The notes under the pieces were generated by a model. The model saw only the letters and a program-made list of their open reading frames with translations. It was not told the DNA's origin and made no database searches. This document shows, in pieces, positions 1 through 11,192 of a stretch of DNA of 48,513 nt. The stretch's first letter is position 1; each line of letters begins with the position of its first letter. Made by a program: the position numbers and the translations under genes. The stretch lies in NCBI GenBank assembly GCA_964356815.1, contig CAYHIR010000005.1, positions 1 through 48,513 on the forward strand. Direction: 5' to 3'. The DNA is from an uncultured Candidatus Saccharibacteria bacterium. GTDB taxonomy: Bacteria; Patescibacteriota; Minisyncoccia; Phycocordibacterales; DATGWK01.

Positions 1-595
1 TGACGACAAGCTCGGCGAAAACTTTGTCGATTGCTGGTTGGACGAGTTTTGCGGGATCTTTGACGATAATTTCAGCCTCAGCCGCTTCGTTGACCAATTT
101 TTCTTTCCAGGTTGGTGCAAAAGAATATAAAAATTCTTGGAGACGATAGTTGGCGACGCCGGGGATTTTAAATTCGGCGATTGCAAAGCCGTTGTCGTCG
201 GCGTCTATTGGGGTGACGAGTTTCTGATCAATTTTTTCGGCGATCGCTTTTGCGGCCGAAGTGTCCGTGGCGCCGGAATTTTTTCCCGCGCAAATTTTCT
301 CACCGTATTCTTTCCACACTAAACCAAATGCGGCGTAAGGAATGCCGTTTGCGCGAGCGCCAGAGCCACCGGGCTGATGATGGTCGAAGCGGCGATTTGA
401 TGGATCGTAGACGTGTCCAACATCCACCACATATCCGCCTTCAGCAGTAGTTTGCGCAATAATTTCTTCGTCGCGGGTGCGGACAATGTTTATTTTATCT
501 AAGCCGCCGAGCAAGTGCGCGAGTGTAGCGACGGCGAATATGTCGTCGGCGTGAAATTGGGCGTTGTGGGCTAAGACTGTTGTGGGTTTATCCAT
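1..595 (-). CDS. MYG1 (UPF0160) family metal-dependent hydrolase/exonuclease; runs off the left edge of the window
   Basis: Not in the ORF track. Read by hand from ATG at 595: MDKPTTVLAHNAQFHADDIFAVATL...VDVGHVYDPSNRRFDHHQ...YAAFGLVWKEYG...PIDADDNG, matching the MYG1 HxDD, DVG, RFDHHQ and GLVW motifs. Overlaps the ATPase 3' end by 25 nt. Confidence 0.85.
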   Translation of the reverse strand, partial: MDKPTTVLAHNAQFHADDIFAVATLAHLLGGLDKINIVRTRDEEIIAQTTAEGGYVVDVGHVYDPSNRRFDHHQPGGSGARANGIPYAAFGLVWKEYGEKICAGKNSGATDTSAAKAIAEKIDQKLVTPIDADDNGFAIAEFKIPGVANYRLQEFLYSFAPTWKEKLVNEAAEAEIIVKDPAKLVQPAIDKVFAELVV

Positions 596-3402
596 GTTTT
601 TGGGTTTAGATTTGTGTTTGAAAATTTTCCTGCAAGATACCGCCGCGTAAAATATTTTCGCACTTCCTCGACTAAAATTATACTGACCGCAATACCGACG
701 ACAACTGAAAGTTCGTAAAACGATAACGGCTTAGTATGCAACAATTTTTGAAGAAATGGTACATAGATGGCGGCGAGTTGGAGGACGACGGCAGACAAGG
801 TGGCAACGATGAGAAAAGGATTACCGAAAGAGTGACGTGAGAAAATCGTCTCGTTTTCCGAGCGCACGTTCCAAGCGTTGAACCATTGAAAAACGGCGAG
901 TGCGGTCATGGCCATCGTGGAAGCTTTTACAAAATCGGCGTGATAGTACGAAGCGAACAAGAAGATACTGCCCACCGCCATCACAATTCCCATGTATGAC
1001 ATGCGGAAGATTGCGAGCCTGTCGAACAGTGTGCGGTGACGAATTTTTTGGCCGCTGCGATTATCGCCGGTAGTACCGCGCGCACTCTGCCCGCGCATTT
1101 TTTCCGTCTCAAGACCGAGGGCAAAAACGAAAAAGCCGTCGGTCACTAAATTAAGCCAAAGAATTTGAGTTGGAAAAAGCGGCAACGGAAATGCGAGTAG
1201 AAGGGCGAAAAGAACAGTAAATAGCTCGCCGAAGCCCGTTGAAAAAAGATAGAGAATGACTTTTTTGATGCTTCGATACATGTTGCGACCTTCATCTATG
1301 GCGGCCACGATGCTTTTGAAATTGTCGTCGAGAAGAACGATGTCGGCCGCTTCTTTGCTCACTTCTGTGCCAATCTTCCCCATCGCCACACCCAAATCGG
1401 CGGCTACTAGTGAGAGCGCGTCGTTCACGCCGTCGCCCGTCATCGCTACGATCTCGCCATTTTTGCGATAGAGATTGATGAGTTGGAGTTTTTCATCTGG
1501 CGAAATGCGCGCAAACACAGACACGCGCGACAAACGCATGAGCAATTCTGTTTCGTTCAACTCGCGCAAATCTTTGTCGGTAAGCACCTCATCGTCATCG
1601 CGAAAAATTCCCGCTTCGCGCGCAATTGTTTCGGCCGTCACTTTATGATCGCCGGTAATCATCACCACTTTGAGCCCACGCTCGCGGGCCGCTTCCACTG
1701 CTTCACGCACACCCTCGCGCAATGTGTCACGCATACCAAAAATGCCCACGAAAGTGGCTTTATTTTCGGCGTTGATTTTTTCTGGTTCAAGTTCGCCTTT
1801 GAAAGCCGGAATTACTGCTGTAGCAATCACCCGCTGACCATTTTTCGACATCGCATGAATCTGTTTTTCAATTTCTGTTTTGCGGGCGATTGTGAGAGTG
1901 AGCGCTGACGATTTCGCCGGCGAAGAATCTGCACCATTCGCCGCAAACCACTGCTTATTACAAAGCGGCAAAATAGCTTCCGGTGCGCCGACGATGGTCA
2001 TAAATTGTTTGCCGCCAACGTTGTGAAGCGTGAGATGATATTTTAATTTCGAATCAAAGGGCAGTTCGGCAATTTGTGGTGAAGCCACTTCGAGCTCATC
2101 TTTTTTTAAACCCGTTTTCTCACCGAAAACTAAAAGTGCTGCTTCTGTCGGATCGCCAGCCACATGCCAAATTTTTTCCTGTTCATTAAAAGCCACACGA
2201 GCCGACGCGCAAAAAGTGGCGATTTTGCCCATGAATGCGATCTCCGCCGTCGAAATCTCCGCACCATCCAGCGAAATCTGCCCTACCGGCTCATAACCAC
2301 TGCCGTCGACTGAGAATTTTTTGCCAGCCACCCAAACCGTCTCCACCATAAGCTCGTTTTTGGTGATCGTGCCAGTTTTGTCGACGGCGATGACAGTTGC
2401 CTGACCAAGCGCCTCCACGGCATCGAGATTTTTTACGAGCGCGTTTTGTTTAGCCATTCTGTACGCACCGCTCGCAAGCACAATTGTAATGACGATCGGC
2501 AAACCTTCAGGAATGAGCGACACAGCGACAGCAACGGCCGTGAAAAACATCGTGCCCGCAGAGTTGCCTTGCAGAAACCCCAGAATAAAAACCAGCGCGC
2601 TCGCCACCAAAGTACCAATCGCCACGAGCCTCGAGAGTTTGCGAATATCTTTTTTGAGCGGAATTTCAGTGTTGAGCGTAACGATCTGTTTGGAAATTGC
2701 ACCAATGACTGTTTTCACGCCAGTAGAAACAACAACCGCCTTAGCAAAACCAGCGGCCACGAAAGTGCCTTTGAAAACCATATTTTTCTGATCGCCGAGC
2801 GCGATGGAGTTGGCGGCGTCATGTGCGCCGCGCGAGCTCGCGCGCGAGATTGTCTCGATAGATTTTGAAACCGGAATAGACTCGCCCGTCAAAGCCGATT
2901 CATCTACCCCAAATGTCCTCACTTCAATGAGCCGCGCATCGGCCGGAATTTTGTCGCCTTCGCGAAGCATTATTATGTCACCCGGTACAATTTCTCCGTC
3001 AGCCAAAGACATTTCTATGCCGTCGCGAATTGCTACCGCTTCGGTTTTTGCAAAAGAACGAAGTGCGAGAAGTGTATTGTGCGCGCGACCTTCCTGATAC
3101 AAACCAATAAATGCGTTTATCAAAAGCACGCCGAGGATGACGAAAGAGTCGGTGAGATCGCCCAAAAAATACACGACGACGCTCGCAATGAGCAAAATAT
3201 AAATGAGAGGACTCGCAAATTGGCGCGAAAATAATTTTAAAACGCTCGGGCTTTCTGGCGCAGGCAATGCATTTGCGCCGAAAGTTTTCAAACGCTTCAC
3301 CGCTTCAATAGAAGACAAACCTTGCTCGGTCGCACTCGTCGCAAGATTTAGATTTTTAAAAATATTGGCAACACTTTCTGCGTACCAGTTGGAATTCGCC
3401 AT
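571..3402 (-). CDS. Cation-transporting P-type ATPase (P2A/Ca2+-like)
   Basis: TGES, PEGLP, DKTGT phosphorylation site, MITGD and TGDGVND motifs; multiple TM segments. Confidence 0.95.
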   Translation of the reverse strand: MANSNWYAESVANIFKNLNLATSATEQGLSSIEAVKRLKTFGANALPAPESPSVLKLFSRQFASPLIYILLIASVVVYFLGDLTDSFVILGVLLINAFIGLYQEGRAHNTLLALRSFAKTEAVAIRDGIEMSLADGEIVPGDIIMLREGDKIPADARLIEVRTFGVDESALTGESIPVSKSIETISRASSRGAHDAANSIALGDQKNMVFKGTFVAAGFAKAVVVSTGVKTVIGAISKQIVTLNTEIPLKKDIRKLSRLVAIGTLVASALVFILGFLQGNSAGTMFFTAVAVAVSLIPEGLPIVITIVLASGAYRMAKQNALVKNLDAVEALGQATVIAVDKTGTITKNELMVETVWVAGKKFSVDGSGYEPVGQISLDGAEISTAEIAFMGKIATFCASARVAFNEQEKIWHVAGDPTEAALLVFGEKTGLKKDELEVASPQIAELPFDSKLKYHLTLHNVGGKQFMTIVGAPEAILPLCNKQWFAANGADSSPAKSSALTLTIARKTEIEKQIHAMSKNGQRVIATAVIPAFKGELEPEKINAENKATFVGIFGMRDTLREGVREAVEAARERGLKVVMITGDHKVTAETIAREAGIFRDDDEVLTDKDLRELNETELLMRLSRVSVFARISPDEKLQLINLYRKNGEIVAMTGDGVNDALSLVAADLGVAMGKIGTEVSKEAADIVLLDDNFKSIVAAIDEGRNMYRSIKKVILYLFSTGFGELFTVLFALLLAFPLPLFPTQILWLNLVTDGFFVFALGLETEKMRGQSARGTTGDNRSGQKIRHRTLFDRLAIFRMSYMGIVMAVGSIFLFASYYHADFVKASTMAMTALAVFQWFNAWNVRSENETIFSRHSFGNPFLIVATLSAVVLQLAAIYVPFLQKLLHTKPLSFYELSVVVGIAVSIILVEEVRKYFTRRYLAGKFSNTNLNPKTWINPQQS

Positions 3403-3404
3403 GA

Positions 3405-3983
3405 TTAGTTAGCGCTAAAATTCGCGCGCTCGGCCGCGCCACTACCCGCGTTTTTCCCGCACCACACAAAAAACAAAATTAGAATGAAAGCTGTGAGCGC
3501 CATCGTCGGGATGGTGATGTAGCCGTATTCCATAATGTAGAGAATTGAACACGTGCCGCCTTCAGCTGTGCACGGCGTGAATGAACGGCCACCGAGCTGG
3601 GTGTATGAATGATAGAGCGAAACAAGCCCGCCGAGCACCGAAAGGCCAACGAGATATCGCATTGTGCTTTTCAAACCCTCGCCGCGATCTTTGTAGTACA
3701 TCGCCAAAGCAATTATGAGAATTTGTGGATAGAGCATGATGCGACCGATCCAACAAAGCACGCACGGCTCGTAGCCGAGCACTTCAGAAAAAAACAGGCT
3801 CCCACCAAGACCAGCGAGCGATACGAGCAAAGCCAACCCGAGCATATGACGACCCAAGAAATTTTTCACCGCCAAAATTGCCGGAATTTTTAGCCAATAA
3901 CCCACGAAAAAAATCACCAACGCAACATGACTAGCGAGAGCCAGAAAAACATTTGTGGAAATTACAATTTGAGAAAGTTGCAT
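3405..3983 (-). CDS. dsbB: Disulfide bond formation protein DsbB/BdbC family
   Basis: EPCVLCWIGRIMLYP motif, second Cys pair (PCTAEGGTCS), several TM helices. Start moved to ATG 3983 (MQLSQ). Confidence 0.8.
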   Translation of the reverse strand: MQLSQIVISTNVFLALASHVALVIFFVGYWLKIPAILAVKNFLGRHMLGLALLVSLAGLGGSLFFSEVLGYEPCVLCWIGRIMLYPQILIIALAMYYKDRGEGLKSTMRYLVGLSVLGGLVSLYHSYTQLGGRSFTPCTAEGGTCSILYIMEYGYITIPTMALTAFILILFFVWCGKNAGSGAAERANFSAN

Positions 3984-4015
3984 AAAATTGGCGGCCACGC
4001 GGCCGCAAAAACCGC

Positions 4016-4408
4016 TTACTGCGCCGAGTGCGCCACCGACAAAGGACAACTCGTCTTATCGGCCAATTCTTGAAGTGTGAAAACTTTCACCTCGCGAGTG
4101 CCGTCGGCAAATTCCCATGTTGGATAACCTTTAATGCCGGCGTCGGCGCAGACCGGAAGCGATGGACCCTGCTGGCCGGGTGGTGAGCACTCTATATAAG
4201 GCAAGAGCTTGGCTGATGCACCAAAAACGGCTTTCTGATCTCTACAGTGCGGACACCACCATGCGCCATAAAACCTTACGCCTTTGTCGGCAATACATTG
4301 CGCTAAAGTGTCGTATTTGCCCGGACCAGACGGCTTGGTGAGAATCCAGATAACGCCACCGAGAATAATAAGTGCGATTAAAATGAAAACGAGGGATTTT
4401 AGTTTCAT
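4016..4408 (-). CDS. Membrane-anchored thioredoxin-fold protein (CPHC), likely DsbA-like partner of DsbB
   Basis: N-terminal hydrophobic anchor, FYGAWWCPHC, YIEC and GYPTW (cis-Pro loop); adjacent to dsbB. Confidence 0.75.
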   Translation of the reverse strand: MKLKSLVFILIALIILGGVIWILTKPSGPGKYDTLAQCIADKGVRFYGAWWCPHCRDQKAVFGASAKLLPYIECSPPGQQGPSLPVCADAGIKGYPTWEFADGTREVKVFTLQELADKTSCPLSVAHSAQ

Positions 4409-4435
4409 TAAAACATTATACCAAATATAAATAAT

Positions 4436-5413
4436 TTAGATAAAACCCAATTCATTTATCAATTTATAAGTATTCCCATGCAATAAAAGACCTTTATAAG
4501 AAGCGATGCTTCCCGGTGACTGGTTTTTACTAATATTTTTTATCATTCTTCGCTCAGTCACTTTCCTGACAATTTTATGATCAGAGAAATGCACCCAGCC
4601 AAGAAAATCAACGCCCGAAGAAAAAGTCTTTACAAAAACTTTATCAGGATGAAGTGATAATTTTAAATTTTTTTCTAAAAATTCAGCGATTTTGGGAATC
4701 ATGTTAAGTAAGTGATTCCGATCTTGGTCGAGAATTACAAAATCGTCGGCGTAACGAATATAATATTTTGCTTTTATTTTATGCTTCATGAACTGATCAA
4801 ATTCATTCATGTAAATATTTACAAAAAGCTGTGATGTGAGATTGCCAAGAGGTAGACCAACACCTGGGCGTGTGGAATAAAAACTTCCAATAATTTCTGA
4901 CAAAAGTTTTAATACATTTTTATCCGAAATATACAGGCCAAGAATTTTTAGAAGAGTTATTTGATCTATTGATGCAAAAAATTTGCGAATATCGCATTTC
5001 AAAACCCAAACAGTTTTTGTGTGATTTTTGGATGCCTCAAAAGCAAAAGATTTGAATCGCGCCATCGCTTTATGCGTGCCTTTATTTAATCGACAAGAAT
5101 AAGAGTCAGGTGCGAATGTTTTATCGAAAAAAGTATAAAGTTTTCTGTAAATAGCGTGATGTAATAATCTATCTCTCACACTTGCCTTGTGAATCTCGTG
5201 AAATTTTGGATCGAAAATGGTAAACGGTTTATAAAAAGAGTGAGTGTATGTTTTTGCAACCAAGTCTCTATGAAGCAACATCATATTGCCCATAAGATTT
5301 CGCCCAAATTCTTGCACATCTTTTCGGTTGCGTTTACCATTTACAAATTCACCCCACGCTTCGAGAAGATTCTCGATGGAGATGATATCCTTATATTTCA
5401 GTTCGAAATGCAT
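4436..5413 (-). CDS. DGR reverse transcriptase
   Basis: GLPLGNLTSQLF (GxxxSQ motif), YIRYADDF catalytic motif, RDRLLHHA, KCDIRKFFASID; 325 aa with no maturase or endonuclease domain; next to TR. Confidence 0.95.
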   Translation of the reverse strand: MHFELKYKDIISIENLLEAWGEFVNGKRNRKDVQEFGRNLMGNMMLLHRDLVAKTYTHSFYKPFTIFDPKFHEIHKASVRDRLLHHAIYRKLYTFFDKTFAPDSYSCRLNKGTHKAMARFKSFAFEASKNHTKTVWVLKCDIRKFFASIDQITLLKILGLYISDKNVLKLLSEIIGSFYSTRPGVGLPLGNLTSQLFVNIYMNEFDQFMKHKIKAKYYIRYADDFVILDQDRNHLLNMIPKIAEFLEKNLKLSLHPDKVFVKTFSSGVDFLGWVHFSDHKIVRKVTERRMIKNISKNQSPGSIASYKGLLLHGNTYKLINELGFI

Positions 5414-5453
5414 TTAGTAAAATATTACAACACAAAAAATAAAACCATGAATA

Positions 5454-5462
5454 CCCCCCCCC
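5454..5462 (+). repeat. C9 homopolymer between ATG 5447 and the avd reading frame
   Basis: ATG AAT A CCCCCCCCC GCAAAATTACTCCCA TTG. There are 25 nt between AAT and the avd-frame TTG, so removing one C restores the frame. Confidence 0.85.
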
Positions 5463-5477
5463 GCAAAATTACTCCCA

Positions 5478-5837
5478 TTGTTGCAAAAAATGAAAGAGGT
5501 TTATTTAATCTGGTATAGCTATTATCAAATTCTACCAAAAACACATCGTCACTCGCTTGGTCAAAAAATCGACACTTTATTTGTAGAAATTATTGAAGCA
5601 ATCGCTGTTGCAAGTTTTTTAAATCGCGAAGAAAAACATCCGTGGGTCCGACTCGCAATCCGCAAATTGGATGCTCTAAAAGTATTGCTCATGGTTCTAT
5701 GGGAAACAAAATCGCTTGATAATAAAAAATATATTGCTTTATCACTAAAAATTGATGAGATTGGTCGAATGCTCGGCGGATGGAATGGACAACTAGTAAA
5801 ACAAAACTCCCCCGCCACAAAGACGGAGGAGAAATGA
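5478..5837 (+). CDS. avd: DGR accessory variability determinant (Avd)-like four-helix-bundle protein
   Basis: About 120 aa, helical; LPKTHRHSLGQKIDTLF and EIGRMLGGW motifs typical of Avd; lies between RT and TR. The native start may be ATG 5447 (see findings). Confidence 0.85.
   Translation: MLQKMKEVYLIWYSYYQILPKTHRHSLGQKIDTLFVEIIEAIAVASFLNREEKHPWVRLAIRKLDALKVLLMVLWETKSLDNKKYIALSLKIDEIGRMLGGWNGQLVKQNSPATKTEEK
5798..5831 (-). terminator. GC-rich hairpin plus U tract 3' of TR, embedded antisense in the avd 3' end
   Basis: Minus strand CUCCUCCGUC-UUUGU-GGCGGGGGAG then UUUUGUUUU: a 10-bp stem with two G-U pairs that would be C-A mismatches on the plus strand. Confidence 0.65.
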
Positions 5838-5842
5838 AATGA

Positions 5843-5980
5843 TTTGCGACGGACAAACACGAAACGGTTGTCAGCATTCCAGACATTGTCAGGGTTGCCG
5901 TTGTTAGCGTTGAGCCACAGCTCATCGTTGTCGTGTTCGATGCTGAACACGTTGAGGTTGCCGTTCGAGTCCGTTATATA
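5843..5980 (-). repeat. DGR template repeat (TR)
   Basis: 138-nt ungapped match to 6372-6509; 20 mismatches, all at TR adenines; 11 AAY codons in the target frame. Confidence 0.95.
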
Positions 5981-6215
5981 TAGAGCGCCATCCATGCCAC
6001 CACCCAGCGTGAAAGCTTTTGGCTGATCTTCTGGGTTGTATCGTATTCGGTATCTTAAATACCCTAGCGCTCCATACCAAGTATTTTCATTTTTTATGAA
6101 GTTCTACATAAGCCCTCCGTCCGAAACCGTAATCGCGGACGCTCTCAGCTTATGGATACTGGATTCGGTAGCGAGAAACCTTGATCTCCCGCGCATTCAC
6201 CTACTACCACTTTTT

Positions 6216-6242
6216 ATTTTATCAAATTATAAAAAATGTAAA
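6216..6242 (-). promoter_or_regulatory. Candidate promoter for the TR RNA
   Basis: TTTACA-N15-TAAAAT with TG-A extended -10, immediately after the target-gene terminator. Confidence 0.4.
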
Positions 6243-6268
6243 AGAAAAACCCCGAGCAATGCCCGAGG
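6241..6268 (-). terminator. Intrinsic terminator of the DGR target gene
   Basis: CCUCGGGC-AUU-GCUCGGGG (8 bp with 2 G-U) followed by UUUUUCUUU. Confidence 0.6.
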
Positions 6269-6293
6269 CTGAAGTTTTTCACTACTTCAAAGT

Positions 6294-6363
6294 GTTGCGA
6301 CAAAATTGTCGCGAACTAAGGACTAAGGTCAAAGGATCCAAAAGATCCGAGTGACAAAGTCCT
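6294..6363. other. Stem-loops immediately downstream of VR/IMH (candidate retrohoming hairpin/cruciform)
   Basis: Nested AGGACT/AGTCCT (6319-6324/6358-6363) enclosing GGATC-CAAAA-GATCC (6334-6348), plus GCGACAA-AA-TTGTCGC (6297-6312). The position matches the hairpin required downstream of IMH in characterised DGRs. Confidence 0.6.
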
Positions 6364-6368
6364 AAGCA

Positions 6369-7163
6369 CTACTTGCGACGGACAAACACGAAACGGTCGT
6401 CAGCATCCCAGACATCGCCAGGGTCGCCGTCGTGAGCGCCGAGCCACAGCTCACCGTCGTCGTGCTCGATGCCGAACACGCTGAGGTCGCCGTGCGAGTC
6501 CGCGATAGACTCCGTGGCAATGATGAGCCACTCACCTTTGGGCTGGTCGGTGTACTGCAGGCGCAGTTGCGGGCCAACCTCGTTGGGACAAAGCTCGAGA
6601 CCAAGTTCCTGTGCCTTTGCACAGATTTGGTCGTACCTAGCTCCGTCCTTGAAGCCGAGTTCGGCCACTGACAGGTTGACCAGGTTGACTTCTTGCTCGG
6701 TCTCGCTCGCGGTAAACGCGGGCTTGCCGAGGATGTCGTTCGCCCAGTCGCCGACTTTCATTCCCGCCGCCTTGATGGCAGTGCGAAAACCTGCGGCATC
6801 CTTGATGCCAGTGCCGAGCTTGAGGGTCTTCCAGACCTTCATCGTCGATGGCATCTTTGGGAATGCCCTGTCGAGCAGACCCTTGAGTTCCAAGAGTCGC
6901 TCATAAAGCATCCCGTGCCACGAAACGTGACCCGTCTGACGTTCGGCGAGAAGCGCAAGCGGTCGCTTGAGGGCTTCCTCGAGTTTATCGAGACTGCCGC
7001 TCTTCGCGTCGTTCTTGGTAGCGAGAGTCGTGGTTGCCACGATGACTTCATCGCGAAGCACCTCTCTCACCCTTTCCTCACCGCCGACCTTCTTGACCAG
7101 GGCATTCAATTCGCCACCAGTCAGGTTGGCTATCGCAAAACGCTCTTTCGTTGCAGTCGTCAT
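6369..7163 (-). CDS. DGR target protein with C-terminal variable region (probable C-type-lectin-fold domain)
   Basis: VR encodes the last ~46 aa ending RFVFVRRK; AAGGAG RBS; no signal peptide or TM segment visible. The CLec fold is inferred from DGR precedent. Confidence 0.9.
   Translation of the reverse strand: MTTATKERFAIANLTGGELNALVKKVGGEERVREVLRDEVIVATTTLATKNDAKSGSLDKLEEALKRPLALLAERQTGHVSWHGMLYERLLELKGLLDRAFPKMPSTMKVWKTLKLGTGIKDAAGFRTAIKAAGMKVGDWANDILGKPAFTASETEQEVNLVNLSVAELGFKDGARYDQICAKAQELGLELCPNEVGPQLRLQYTDQPKGEWLIIATESIADSHGDLSVFGIEHDDGELWLGAHDGDPGDVWDADDRFVFVRRK
6372..6509 (-). repeat. DGR variable repeat (VR)
   Basis: Differs from TR by 16 A>G and 4 A>C; ends at the target stop codon after the A-free run CGTTTCGTGTTTGTCCGTCGC shared with TR. 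Confidence 0.95.
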
Positions 7164-7230
7164 GGGAGTCTCCTTGGGCTCATTTGCCCATTTTCTGATT
7201 TCCTCTCATCCGAGGCGGAGCAATGACCGA

Positions 7231-7284
7231 AGTAGTCATAGCCAGAAAACACTGAAAAATCAGGGTCTTTTGGCTATGACTACT
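7231..7284. promoter_or_regulatory. Long hairpin in the 5' leader of the DGR target gene
   Basis: Perfect 14-bp inverted repeat AGTAGTCATAGCCA / TGGCTATGACTACT with an inner CTGA-AAAA-TCAG cap. Confidence 0.7.
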
Positions 7285-7315
7285 CGCAAGTAGTTTCAAT
7301 GTTCTATCTTTTTGT

Positions 7316-7344
7316 AGTATACACCCAAATTGGCTTTCTGTCAA
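7316..7344 (-). promoter_or_regulatory. Sigma70-type promoter of the DGR target gene
   Basis: TTGACA-N17-TATACT. Confidence 0.75.
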
Positions 7345-7367
7345 GCTCACTCAGCTCGGCGGGCATA

Positions 7368-7802
7368 TTAAACAAACTCTTCAAAACATCTCCTCGTCGC
7401 TGGCCAAATGAGCATTTTTTCCATGTCGGATTTTGTAAACCAACCATGATCGGCAATTTCGCTGTCGTTCATGCGCACTCGGCCGGAAGAAATTTCGCAT
7501 AGCCACCAGTGCGTCGTCTGATCCCCCACATCGCCCGGCGTTTCGGCAATTTTTCGCGTTGGACGCACGAGCACATCGAGCTCTTCTTTCATTTCGCGCA
7601 CGAGCGCCGTTTTTTCATCTTCCCCATTTTCCAAATGCCCGCCCGGCGGATACCAATAGCCCGTAAATCGCCCAAAATCTTTTTTCGATTTTATTAAAAG
7701 AAATTTTTCGACGCTCGCCCTCGCGGCGGCGACAGCGTATGCGCCTCTGCCGGCGCCACTTTTAGCTTTTTTAGAAATTATGCCAACGACGACGTGTTTC
7801 AT
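7368..7802 (-). CDS. NUDIX hydrolase
   Basis: Nudix box GGHLENGEDEKTALVREMKEELDV. Confidence 0.9.
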   Translation of the reverse strand: MKHVVVGIISKKAKSGAGRGAYAVAAARASVEKFLLIKSKKDFGRFTGYWYPPGGHLENGEDEKTALVREMKEELDVLVRPTRKIAETPGDVGDQTTHWWLCEISSGRVRMNDSEIADHGWFTKSDMEKMLIWPATRRCFEEFV

Positions 7803-7805
7803 TTT

Positions 7806-8177
7806 TTAAATATGAGACCTAGCGGCGATGCCAAAATAATCAAAATATTTTTGTAAATCAACGAGCTTGGTGCCATACTCTTTGCCGCCTAAAATTGCGT
7901 CGCAAAAAAATTCGCGCGCTCGGCCGATTTCCTGAAGCCGCCCTTTTCCACCGCCATTTTTACTTCCACTTTTACTGTTCTCTCGCCAGCGTTTGTCTGA
8001 AAGAGTTAAATCGAACAATTCCAAAGCTCTGTCTGAAGCCGCATCGAAAAGTTTCTTATCTTTTCCCTCCTGTCTGGTCGCTCGCGAAACTTCACTGCCA
8101 ATATTCCCCATTTGTTCTGATAGAGAAAGCTCGCCCCATCGTCCAGCGGCTAAATTTTTGTGAATTGGTGGTGTCAT
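7806..8177 (-). CDS. Conserved hypothetical protein (helical)
   Basis: Clean 123-aa ORF, collinear with neighbours (RWGELSLSEQMGNIGSEVSRA); function unknown. Confidence 0.7.
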   Translation of the reverse strand: MTPPIHKNLAAGRWGELSLSEQMGNIGSEVSRATRQEGKDKKLFDAASDRALELFDLTLSDKRWRENSKSGSKNGGGKGRLQEIGRAREFFCDAILGGKEYGTKLVDLQKYFDYFGIAARSHI

Positions 8178-8189
8178 CGCGGCAATTTT

Positions 8190-8549
8190 TTATCGAATCA
8201 CGATTTTTCCAACAATTTCTCTTATTTTCTCTTTAATGGCCGCATCTCCCACACCCCTCGTCCTGTTTCCAAGCGCCGGCTTAAGATTGATCATCGAATC
8301 AAATTCAATAAAATCTTCTTCGTCAAATTTGTCTGGATAAATGTTTATGCCCCAAATATTGTTGTGCGAAGCTCTATTATCTTTCTCCATAAGCGTTGTT
8401 TCAATATCAACATGAAGCTCGCCACCAATGGCTACCGTTCCATTTTCAATATCAACTACCGCTTTTATCATGTCGCCAAAGCCTTCGGCGGCAATTCTTC
8501 GGAGCTCGGCGACAGTAATGGGTTTTTCTAGAATTTGGATTTCAAACAT
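8190..8549 (-). CDS. DUF5674-like protein
   Basis: MIKAVVDIE..GGELHVD..NIWGINIYP..IEFDSMINLKP..NRTRGV pattern, recalled as DUF5674; TGnTAAAAT 6 nt before the ATG. Confidence 0.7.
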   Translation of the reverse strand: MFEIQILEKPITVAELRRIAAEGFGDMIKAVVDIENGTVAIGGELHVDIETTLMEKDNRASHNNIWGINIYPDKFDEEDFIEFDSMINLKPALGNRTRGVGDAAIKEKIREIVGKIVIR

Positions 8550-8570
8550 GTCTTTATTTTAACAAAAATT

Positions 8571-11192
8571 TTATGCGCCATGACACTTCTTATACTTCTT
8601 TCCACTTCCACAAGGACAAAGTTCATTACGACCAACCTCTGGCACGCCGGAATTTTTTGCCGCAGACGCGGCAGAATTTTTCACATCACCACTCGGATTC
8701 GCTGCACCACCCACAAGGGCGGCATTTTCGTGCACTTCGGTAAGATTTTTTGGTGTTTCGACGACGATAGTACTGCCAAGATTTGGAATGGCTTTGAGAA
8801 GTTCGTCATCCACTGCGGCCTGCATTTCTTTGAAAAGACGGAGGCCCTCTTTGCGATATTCCACGAGCGGATCGCGCTGGCCGTAGGCACGAAGATTTAC
8901 ACTCGATCGCATGTAGTCCATCACTTCAAGATGTTCAACCCAAAAAGTGTCGATGATTTGTAAAAAAGCTTGACGAAGCACCGAGCCAAAACGCTCATCG
9001 CCAAGTGCGGTGCGTTTGTCTTGGATAATTTTTTGAAAATCGGGCGGCGGAGTATTGTTGGAACCGTCATCAACAAAATTTATATCATCCGACGGTACAA
9101 CACCTGCAACGACCTCGTTAACCTCCGCAAAAATCTCTTCGGTAGAACCAGTAAGAATTTTTCGGCGGCGATTGTAGACAGCGGCGCGTTGGACGTTTAA
9201 CACATCATCAAATTCGAGAATGCGTTTGCGGGCATCGAAATTAAAACCCTCTATCTTTGTCTGCGCTGACTCAAGCGAGCGCGTGATCATGCCGTTTTGG
9301 ATTGGTTCATCTTCAGCCAAGCCCATACGGCCCATGAGTTTTTTTACCGTGTCTGACGCAAAAACGCGCATCAGAGTGTCTTCGAGGGAAACAAAAAATT
9401 GTGTTTCGCCTTTGTCGCCCTGGCGACCAGAGCGGCCGCGGAGCTGATTGTCGATACGACGTGCTTCGTGTCGCTCGGTACCGATCACGAAAAGCCCGCC
9501 CATGGCTTCCACCTCATCACGCATTTCCGGTGTGGCTTGAATGCCGCCAAGCTTAATATCCACACCGCGGCCAGCCATGTTGGTGGCAATAGTTACCGCG
9601 CCTTTGCGACCGGCGGCGGCAATAATCTCACCTTCTTTTTCGTGATTTTTAGCATTCAAAAGCTCGTGCTTAATGCCTTCGTTTTTTAAATAGTCGGAAA
9701 GCAGTTCATTTTTTTCAATCGAAACTGTACCCACGAGCACCGGTCGGCCGGTGGCATTTAGCTCTTTGATACGCTTCGCGGTTGCCAAAAATTTGCCGTG
9801 TTCCGTTTGGAAAATGAAATCGTTGTGATCGAGGCGTTGCGGCGTTTTATTTGTAGGGATAGCAAAAATATCCAAGCCATAAACCTTGAAAAATTCTTCT
9901 TTCGAAGTGAGCGCTGTACCCGTCATACCCGCGAGCTTTTTATATAGACGAAAATAATTCTGGAAAGTGATAGACGCAAAAGTCCGCGACTCTTGCTCAA
10001 TTGGTACACCCTCTTTCGCTTCAATGGCCTGATGCAAACCTTCCGACCATCTTCGGCCCGGCTGCATGCGGCCGGTAAATTCATCAACAATGATGACTTG
10101 ATTGTCTTTCACAACATAGTTTCGGTCGCGCAAATAAAGAGCCTTAGCTTTGACCGCCGACTCCAAATGATGCACATACTTCATGCTTTTTTCGGTGTAA
10201 ATATTTTCCACGCCGAGCTTTTTCTCAGCGTAATCGATACCTGCTTCGGTGAGAGAAATGGCGTGAAGTTTTTCGTCGAGTGTGTAGTGATCATTTTCCT
10301 GCATGCCGACGGCAATCGACGCGAATTTTTCGTACAGTCTTTCCGACTGATTGAACGGTGCAGAAATAATGAGCGGTGTACGCGCTTCGTCTATTAAAAT
10401 AGAATCAACTTCATCGACAATTGCATAATTGTAGCCGCGCTGGCGCAAATTTTGCGGATTATATTCAATGTTGTCGCGCAAATAATCAAAACCGAATTCA
10501 TTATTCGTTCCATATGTAATGTCTGCTGCATACGCCTCTTTGCGCGTACATGGTCGCAAAAATTCGTGGACAACCTTAAATGAGCCGAGTTCGTCGCGTT
10601 CACTGTCTAGGTTTTTCGCGTCACCGTCGCCTGCGTCGACATTTTTTTCCGCGGCGTTTATGTGCGCCGCATCATACAAAAAAGATTGATCGTGATTGAT
10701 CACACCCACAGAAAGTCCGAGCGCATTGTAAATCTGTCCCATCCACACGGCGTCGCGGCGAGAAAGATAGTCGTTCACCGTCACCACATGCACACCGTCG
10801 CCACGCAAAGCATTTAAAAACGCGGGCAGTGTGGCGACGAGAGTTTTTCCTTCACCAGTGCGCATCTCCGCGCCGTTGCCTTTGTGCATAACAATGCCGC
10901 CGATAAGCTGAACATCGAAATGTCGCTGACCGAGTGTGCGCTTCGATGCTTCACGCACAAGGGCAAAAGCCTCGGGCAAAATTTCGTCGAGTACAGTCTC
11001 TAAATCTTCCGGCGCTGAGTCCTCTTTCGTGGCCGCTTTCACCCGCGCGCGTAGATCGGCCGTTTTAGCTTGCAGAGCCTCGTTTGAGAGCTTTTCTATA
11101 TCAGCCTCCAGGGCATTAATTTCCTCGACTAGGGGCAAAAAAACCTTTGTTTCTTGGCCTCCAGAGCCGAAAAGTTTTGAAATTATAGACAT
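8571..11192 (-). CDS. secA: Preprotein translocase subunit SecA
   Basis: [49 protein letters not shown] and C-terminal SEC-C ([13 protein letters not shown]). Confidence 0.98.

Follow-up and report, generated by a model that had tools for sequence, protein, structure and literature searches.

A chromosomal diversity-generating retroelement of a Patescibacteria bacterium with an inverted avd gene and a putative structured leader upstream of its template repeat

The cassette and its repeats

The DNA analysed here (the window) is a stretch of 48,513 nucleotides, contig CAYHIR010000005.1 of GenBank assembly GCA_964356815.1, from an uncultured Candidatus Saccharibacteria bacterium. Positions 4,436 to 7,344 of the window carry a diversity-generating retroelement (DGR). 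Its parts follow each other in the order target gene with variable repeat (VR), template repeat (TR), avd (accessory variability determinant) and reverse transcriptase (RT) gene. Target, TR and RT are on the minus strand, with TR upstream of RT, and avd lies between these two on the plus strand. This layout is already known; the parts of interest are a leader that the RNA containing TR is predicted to carry at its 5' end and, possibly, a simple-sequence repeat at the 5' end of avd.

The RT gene (4436..5413, minus strand) encodes a protein of 325 amino acids that matches Pfam family RVT_1 (2.4e-21). The closest structure in the PDB is the RT of the DGR of Bordetella phage BPP-1 (8ub7, E = 8.8e-40, covering RT residues 10-296), and group II intron and retron RTs match at 1e-15 or weaker, about 25 orders of magnitude behind. 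The sequence LGNLTSQ aligns with IGSLTSQ of the BPP-1 enzyme (bRT), which is the [ILV]GxxxSQ motif, and the catalytic YxDD motif is present as YADD. Judged by its PDB match and motifs, the predicted protein belongs to the DGR clade of RTs.

The avd gene (5447..5837, plus strand) was recognised by profile matches and frame analysis. Its open reading frame (ORF) scores above the cutoff of PF22296 (bAvd, 1e-13) and below the curated cutoff of 80 for NF033474 (DivGenRetAVD, 2.3e-17, 63.2 bits). The start codon of RT (ATG, 5413) is separated from an ATG at 5447 by a gap of 33 nt (5414-5446), so that divergent promoters must sit inside each other's coding regions. The sequence TGTTGTAATAT is found approximately 8-18 nt ahead of the RT ATG; its position suggests an RT mRNA with a very short leader or none at all.

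Repeat search returned a single direct repeat (5844-5978 and 6373-6507, offset 529), and no second VR was found in the window. Together with the TR/VR alignment this places a TR of 136 nt with 39 adenines at 5842..5977 and a VR, comprising the last 45 codons of the target, at 6371..6506, both on the minus strand. Read on that strand, TR and VR differ at 19 positions over 5977..5842, all of which are adenines in TR (19 of the 39). With a longer 5' boundary (5981..5842) the mismatches number 21, again all at adenines (21 of 41), and no mismatch at a non-adenine TR position occurs over either boundary. The hypergeometric probability of this restriction is 1e-12 to 6e-14. The changes from TR to VR are A>G (16-17) and A>C (3-4), with no A>T, and all 11 AAY codons of TR are changed in VR. 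When the comparison is widened to a 145-nt span, 4 boundary positions that are not adenines come in, and the 25 mismatches are distributed 13:7:5 over codon positions 1, 2 and 3. VR is in frame and extends up to the stop codon of the target (CGC AAG TAG, 6371..6369). The adenine-only differences prove that mutagenic homing took place in the past.

A start of TR at 5981-5985 was rejected, as 5985..5978 matches VR at 3 of 8 positions, which is chance level. The homology more likely starts at 5977, adjoining a conserved RNA helix described below. The excess of A>G leaves VR rich in Asp and Gly codons, and this bias may stem from selection on the surface that is displayed or from a misincorporation bias of the RT.

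A first-pass annotation, made from the letters of the window alone, had already proposed an RT with GxxxSQ and YADD motifs, an Avd-like ORF on the opposite strand, and a 138-nt TR/VR pair with 20 mismatches, all at TR adenines, in which 11 AAY codons were changed. The profile and structure matches bear out both genes, and realignment upheld the restriction to adenines and the changed codons; the count of 20 falls inside the range of 19-21, which is set by the choice of 5' boundary.

The region upstream of the template repeat

Relatives of the element were taken from a species-representative genome collection as the 80 RT loci closest to the window RT (57-68% identity), nearly all of them labelled as metagenome-assembled genomes of Patescibacteria, also known as the candidate phyla radiation (CPR). 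RT, Avd and adenine-biased repeat pairs were located in all 80 loci by script. The orientation of avd was counted in the 74 loci that carry DNA upstream of RT, and in each of these avd immediately adjoins RT on the upstream side, in the opposite orientation. The 58 fetched relatives with a detected TR/VR pair form, together with the window, a set of 59 aligned loci; throughout this set TR lies on the RT strand just past the 3' end of avd, and the same strand holds VR, 370-570 nt further upstream. The first-pass annotation had proposed such a survey of avd orientation among RT homologues. It had implied that an inverted avd is rare, which the count of 74 out of 74 contradicts, and had allowed that the layout might already be present in surveys, in which it was correct: in Wu, Gingery, Zimmerly et al. 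2018 (Nucleic Acids Res; PMC5758913) the layout is architecture B3, TR-(avd)-RT, which accounts for 90% of CPR DGRs. The inverted avd is therefore not new, but the standard, published layout for CPR DGRs.

Directly upstream of TR, approximately 230 nt (5978..6212, minus strand) are conserved at 66-85% nucleotide identity (BLAST, MAFFT) in relatives with RTs that are 57-68% identical. RNAalifold applied to the 59-locus alignment of this leader predicted 45 pairs in 7 helices, of which 39 pairs show compensatory changes. This fold pairs 95.3% of the alignment cells, compared with 40-50% once the partners are slid; cells with a double change number 655 against 90-151 in the slid controls, and the covariation score is 0.737 against 0.12-0.19. 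None of 500 shuffles attained the observed values. The best-supported helix is long-range and comprises 12 bp, formed by GUAUGGAGCGCU (6077..6066, minus strand) and GGCGCUCUAUAU (5989..5978, minus strand), the latter adjoining the first position of TR. At 9 of its 12 positions both sides are changed in 18-27 of the 59 sequences. G-U pairs are kept in 51-53 of the 59 sequences and would be C-A on the opposite strand, which places the leader RNA on the strand of TR and RT.

Read 5' to 3' along the minus strand, the predicted fold begins with two hairpins, the first at 6192..6171 and the second at 6142..6117, enclosed by an outer stem (6154..6148 with 6113..6107). Their loops have the motif CGAYYANGGUUU in common. 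A strand predicted to pair 3' of TR follows (6092..6085, within AAAUGAAAA at 6092..6084), then 6 nt including the invariant ACUUGG (6082..6077), then the strand that pairs with the 5' edge of TR, a short stem-loop (6063..6049), the single-stranded CGAAUACGAUACAAC (6049..6035), a further stem-loop (6035..6003), and TR. In nine relatives the loops of leader helices contain hairpin-forming insertions of 20-50 nt, for instance one of about 40 nt in the A-rich region ahead of the primer-like strand at 6092..6085. Structured RNAs whose peripheral stems vary typically behave in this way.

A second pairing would connect the leader with the 3' side of TR. The conserved leader sequence AAAUGAAGA (AAAUGAAAA in the window), 6 nt upstream of the 12-bp helix strand, is complementary to a conserved UCUUCAUUU a few nt 3' of TR (AUUUCAUUU in the window). 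In the window the predicted partner of 6092..6085 is the flank strand UUUCAUUU (5832..5839, minus strand), which holds the avd stop codon on the opposite strand. A G-to-A change of the window in this duplex is compensated by a C-to-U change, and G-C/A-U and A-U/C-G swaps occur at several positions. Duplexes of cognate leader and flank have a mean energy of -6.44 kcal/mol, compared with -4.46 kcal/mol for non-cognate combinations, a difference attained in 0 of 5000 permutations. The share of paired cells is 84% in register, whereas shuffles give 72 +/- 1.2% and sliding the register gives 50-60%.

A search of 4300-7500 with all Rfam families (E <= 1) brought up nothing beyond a chance match to a snoRNA, so that the leader is in no curated family, and no description of a leader 5' of TR was found in the DGR literature searched. 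When Logan contigs were aligned to the window at 85% likeness, contigs from other organisms piled up on 6103-6208, which indicates that the VR-TR intergenic region is common to many different elements in the same metagenomes. Odd contig joints (e.g. 5975 to 6474), the sides of which were short, were set aside as artefacts of the graph or of other organisms.

Alternatively, the conserved region could be unrelated to reverse transcription and act as a small RNA in its own right or as a regulator of the target in cis, and both its own promoter-like motif (see below) and the lack of a match to a known RNA family would suit that explanation. However, the region lies directly 5' of TR in all 59 loci with a TR/VR pair, its strongest helix uses nucleotides adjoining TR, and covariation links its second strand to the nucleotides just 3' of TR; we consider either of these two roles very improbable.

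Consensus scans of the minus strand predicted the ends of the transcripts. The target would be transcribed from a sigma-70-like promoter (7316..7344, TTGACA-17 nt-TATACT, 11 of 12 matches) up to an intrinsic-terminator-like site (6240..6270), and similar GC hairpins with T runs occur in the relatives. Just ahead of the leader lies an extended -10 promoter-like motif, TTTGATAAAAT (6216..6226), with the clade consensus TnTGnTAnAAT, which is aligned and kept across the 59 loci directly after each target terminator hairpin. Starting 11 nt after TR, an intrinsic-terminator-like hairpin (5798..5831) consists of the 10-bp stem CTCCTCCGTC/GGCGGGGGAG and UUUUGUUUU; its stem is at 5831-5807, and the hairpin overlaps the last avd codons of the opposite strand. 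Of the 59 loci, 55 have a perfect-stem hairpin and a T-rich tail behind TR, and the stems differ widely in sequence. A codon alignment of avd showed ordinary synonymous variation throughout, except for frozen codons 104-106 in the C-terminal tail, which lie over the terminator region after TR. A structured RNA spanning antisense avd is unsupported by this analysis, as the free synonymous variation leaves no room for a structured RNA of 140 nt embedded in avd.

Wu et al. 2018 (PMC5758913) state that at least two transcription units are required when the parts of a DGR lie on different strands. In the window there would be four: the target mRNA (promoter 7344-7316, terminator 6270-6240); a separate TR RNA on the minus strand, about 415 nt long, with the extended -10 (6226-6216) ahead of it and consisting of the 5' leader of about 230 nt, TR and the terminator (5831-5798); avd on the plus strand; and RT on the minus strand, divergent from avd. 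Given the extended -10 motif before the leader, the terminator after TR and the synonymous variation in avd outside codons 104-106, TR is probably made as its own RNA that ends in the antisense avd tail and does not continue through avd into RT. In one run of a soil metatranscriptome, two low-depth contigs of a relative cover TR and the 3' end of avd, without strand direction.

A wiring like that of BPP-1 would have TR co-transcribed with RT through antisense avd, a functional spacer with the priming site and the elements binding RT and Avd located 3' of TR in antisense avd sequence, and nothing but a promoter or 3' UTR in the upstream region. TR, antisense avd and RT do lie on the same strand in that order, and Handa et al. 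(bioRxiv 10.1101/2023.10.23.563531) predict an Avd-binding stem-loop just downstream of TR in many DGRs, those of CPR included, where the window indeed has a hairpin. Yet in 55 of 59 loci this hairpin is followed by a conserved U tract and looks terminator-like, synonymous variation in avd is free except at codons 104-106, and the strands pairing with both boundaries of TR lie upstream of it with very strong covariation. Between TR and RT we find this terminator-like hairpin in place of the functional structured spacer of the BPP-1 type, and the covarying strands are 5' of TR. We therefore regard a BPP-1-like wiring as unlikely.

The avd repeat, the target gene and the neighbourhood

As assembled, the ATG at 5447 is one base out of the Avd frame, and between the two lies a homopolymer of nine cytosines (C9; 5454..5462, plus strand), which in that frame encodes Pro-Pro-Pro. 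From 5451 onwards the Avd frame is open, with in-frame starts at TTG 5478 and ATG 5490, so ATG 5447 was rejected as the Avd start for the assembled sequence; C8 or C11 in place of C9 would connect it with the Avd frame. The sequence AKLLPLLQK, which is kept in relatives, follows Pro-Pro-Pro and lies between the tract and ATG 5490. Tracts of C7-C14 are present at the same site of avd in 67 of 75 relatives, and the remainder include (CCAA)n, (GCCAG)n, (GA)n and (CT)n. In all 67 the Avd frame is open through the tract, and an upstream ATG is in frame in only 17 of them. The avd repeat is a candidate for a slippage-prone, phase-variable switch on Avd. The pattern also fits homopolymer assembly error or use of a downstream start: Avd may begin at TTG 5478 or ATG 5490, or the element may be silent in most cells.

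The last of these options deserves separate weighing. The cassette could be structurally complete but silent, or phase-OFF, in most of the population, with VR frozen because C9 blocks full-length Avd from ATG 5447. The one-base offset that C8 or C11 would restore is in line with this, as is the position of the conserved AKLLPLLQK before ATG 5490. Logan contigs end at the C9 tract in two of four runs; those bearing VR are identical to the window in six runs from two studies, and the 90%-identity protein cluster of the target has a single member sequence. Against this, assembled contigs can hide minority alleles, so that diversification at low frequency is possible and VR identity in contigs does not show inactivity. 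In addition, TTG 5478 or ATG 5490 could yield a slightly shorter Avd covering profile positions 4-102, and metagenome assemblies can misstate homopolymer lengths. A largely silent element is a serious possibility, although we think it the less probable state of affairs; it is also compatible with a leader that clamps both ends of TR and does not exclude it. C>T 'variants' listed on VR were discarded, as they arise from the TR contig of the element itself, which cross-maps to VR at 80-85% likeness.

The first-pass annotation had placed avd 33 nt from RT at ATG 5447 and described an intact cellular DGR with separate transcripts. The distance is correct, but this ATG is out of the Avd frame across C9. 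Likewise, the cellular location, the separate units with predicted promoters and terminators of their own and the divergence of avd and RT all stand, whereas 'intact' needs qualifying, as the frame from ATG 5447 misses Avd by one base.

The target gene (6369..7163, minus strand) encodes 264 amino acids and was identified as the ORF ending with VR. It has no Pfam, NCBIfam or PDB sequence match; matches to MASP-1 at E = 0.04 were discarded as chance. Its more than 1000 homologues are all hypothetical proteins without a Pfam domain, most of them of about 200 amino acids, and the N-terminal extension of the window target (approximately 65-100 amino acids) is common to few of them. An AlphaFold2 model based on 53 sequences has a pLDDT above 93 for residues 110-264 and a helical N-terminus of low confidence. 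Foldseek comparison of this model to the PDB returned as top matches nearly exclusively C-type lectin domains, which are weak (E 0.07-1, TM-scores 0.40-0.47). The modelled C-terminal part of approximately 155 residues is compatible with a divergent C-type lectin (CLec) fold.

TR and VR share a GC-rich sequence ending in ...GTCCGTCGCAA and diverge beyond it, as at a 3' boundary of the initiation of mutagenic homing (IMH) type. In DGRs a hairpin marks the recipient repeat. Directly 3' of VR lies an imperfect inverted repeat (6320..6362, minus strand) with stems GGAC/GUCC, GUCA/UGAC and GGAUC/GAUCC, for which DNA folding gives -8.9 kcal/mol (z = -3.5). It is present at the same place in relatives with changes in the arms (e.g. 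GGTTC/GAACC and GGGTC/GACCC), and TR is followed by no counterpart. The predicted hairpin, after VR only, matches the rule for DGR recipients. In nearly all relatives the 50-70 nt after VR (6320-6372 in the window, minus strand) also contain a quasi-periodic CTTNG, with 5-8 copies every 7-10 nt, which overlaps the inverted repeat. Proteins could bind this array, or it could take part in recognising the target site.

The 5' untranslated region (UTR) of the target contains a long hairpin (7232..7283, minus strand) with 13-bp arms GTAGTCATAGCCA and TGGCTATGACTAC, which was found by BLAST upstream of the targets of at least 8 relatives. It is preceded by a small hairpin, ACTACT-TGCG-AGTAGT, and both are located between the target promoter and the target ATG (7209-7283). 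Contigs of other organisms pile up over this 5' UTR at 7209-7275. The long hairpin may be a regulatory leader.

The genes neighbouring the cassette encode a P-type ATPase, DsbB, a thioredoxin-like protein with a WCPHC motif, a NUDIX protein, a DUF5674 protein and SecA; further neighbours are MurB, an O-antigen-ligase/TPR protein, an SIS-CBS protein and glycosyltransferases. Profile searches of the neighbouring proteins found no phage or integrase domain within approximately 15 kb of the cassette, in agreement with the housekeeping surroundings noted at first pass. The element is a chromosomal (cellular) DGR of a Patescibacteria (CPR) bacterium. The G + C content is 39% for RT, avd and TR (4001-6000), 44-53% for the target and adjacent genes (1-4000 and 6001-11000) and 36-42% for most of the remaining window; this contrast gives no clear sign of recent import.

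Proposed mechanism and comparison with known elements

The interpretation that we favour, with a probability of roughly 0.7, is that of a B3-type chromosomal DGR whose TR RNA is a separate transcript with a 5' leader clamping both ends of TR. The RT would copy the TR RNA and misincorporate opposite adenines, and the cDNA would replace VR at the 3' end of the small target gene. The leader would carry what BPP-1 keeps 3' of TR in its spacer. By analogy, the 12-bp helix of 6077..6066 with 5989..5978 at the 5' edge of TR would correspond to the cPRT Stop duplex of BPP-1, and the pairing of 6092..6085 with 5839..5832, just 3' of TR, to its primer:template duplex. TR would be looped out between the two helices, with cDNA synthesis starting beside the last mutated adenine (5843) and stopping at the first helix.

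Several points weigh against this interpretation. The promoter, transcription start and terminator of the TR RNA are predictions from sequence, transcription could read through from TR into RT, and the hairpin after TR could instead, or also, be the Avd-binding stem-loop predicted by Handa et al. The duplex with the 3' flank is A/U-rich and short (8-9 bp), and it is far less well supported than the 12-bp helix. Finally, the invariant VR contigs and the single-member target cluster give no sign of ongoing diversification, and the out-of-frame start of avd fits a silent element.

To our knowledge, how reverse transcription proceeds in DGRs is known from one phage element, in which an essential non-coding RNA lies downstream of the template, and CPR bacteria are the densest DGR population that we know of. 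The inverted avd itself adds one more example to a layout catalogued since 2018. The RNA of CPR DGRs, on the other hand, seems to place essential elements upstream of the template, with very strong support from covariation. If true, the machine of RT, Avd and RNA tolerates permutation, precise RNA boundaries become available for reconstituting a CPR DGR in E. coli, and searches for spacer elements limited to 100 nt downstream of TR are corrected; the avd repeat tract would add an on/off layer to targeted hypermutation. We lean, by a small measure, towards extending the proposal to the Patescibacteria B3 clade as a whole, which would then possess an autonomous TR non-coding RNA of about 0.4 kb, a circular permutation of the BPP-1 DGR RNA, together with gating of mutagenesis by the avd repeat. 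In such an RNA the partner strands of the stop and primer duplexes and the protein-binding hairpins would all lie 5' of TR, and the terminator inside the antisense avd tail; the gate would be the slippage-prone repeat at the avd start (here C9), which is out of frame in the window and in about three quarters of the relatives.

With published CPR elements the agreement is close. Roux et al. 2021 (PMC8144416) describe a Patescibacteria-restricted, cell-encoded DGR clade whose targets have no recognisable domains. The element has architecture B3, which is equivalent to DGR clade 2 of that study: order and orientation are the same, there is a single adjacent target, and the host, judged from the relatives, is a CPR bacterium. 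As both studies describe for CPR targets, the target of the window lacks a recognisable domain, and it has neither a signal peptide nor a transmembrane segment. The layout is identical to published B3; neither survey (PMC5758913, PMC8144416), in the parts available, describes the 5' leader, a terminator separating TR from avd, or the simple-sequence tract at the start of avd.

For BPP-1, Handa et al. (bioRxiv 10.1101/2023.10.23.563531) give the order of the DGR RNA as upstream avd strand, TR and spacer. The spacer begins with an Avd-binding stem-loop, a strand pairing with the 3' end of TR (priming from A56) and 2 nt; it continues with a strand that base-pairs to the upstream avd segment (cPRT Stop), then a short stem-loop and unpaired adenosines, and ends with a single-stranded thumb ring and an RT-binding stem-loop. 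Their search of other DGRs ranged from 40 nt upstream to 100 nt downstream of TR, so that a 5' leader would have been missed. The order of elements in the window would be obtained if that of BPP-1 were opened between TR and spacer and its ends rejoined, and we infer by this analogy that circular permutation relates the TR RNA to the DGR RNA of BPP-1; co-orientation of avd would then no longer be needed.

The element resembles that of BPP-1 (mtd-avd-TR-brt) in its RT, for which the phage enzyme is the closest solved structure, in its Avd protein, in adenine-specific mutagenesis, and in a VR located at the 3' end of the target and followed by an inverted repeat. In both, two RNA duplexes, predicted in the case of the window, bracket TR; their partner strands are a few nt apart on one non-coding segment, after which come a short stem-loop, a single strand that contains A and another stem-loop. 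Unlike in BPP-1, this non-coding segment lies 5' and not 3' of TR, avd is on the other strand, a terminator-like hairpin follows TR, the element is cellular and not phage-borne, and the target is not a tail fibre. By this comparison the TR RNA of the window appears to work like the BPP-1 RNA, but in a permuted order.

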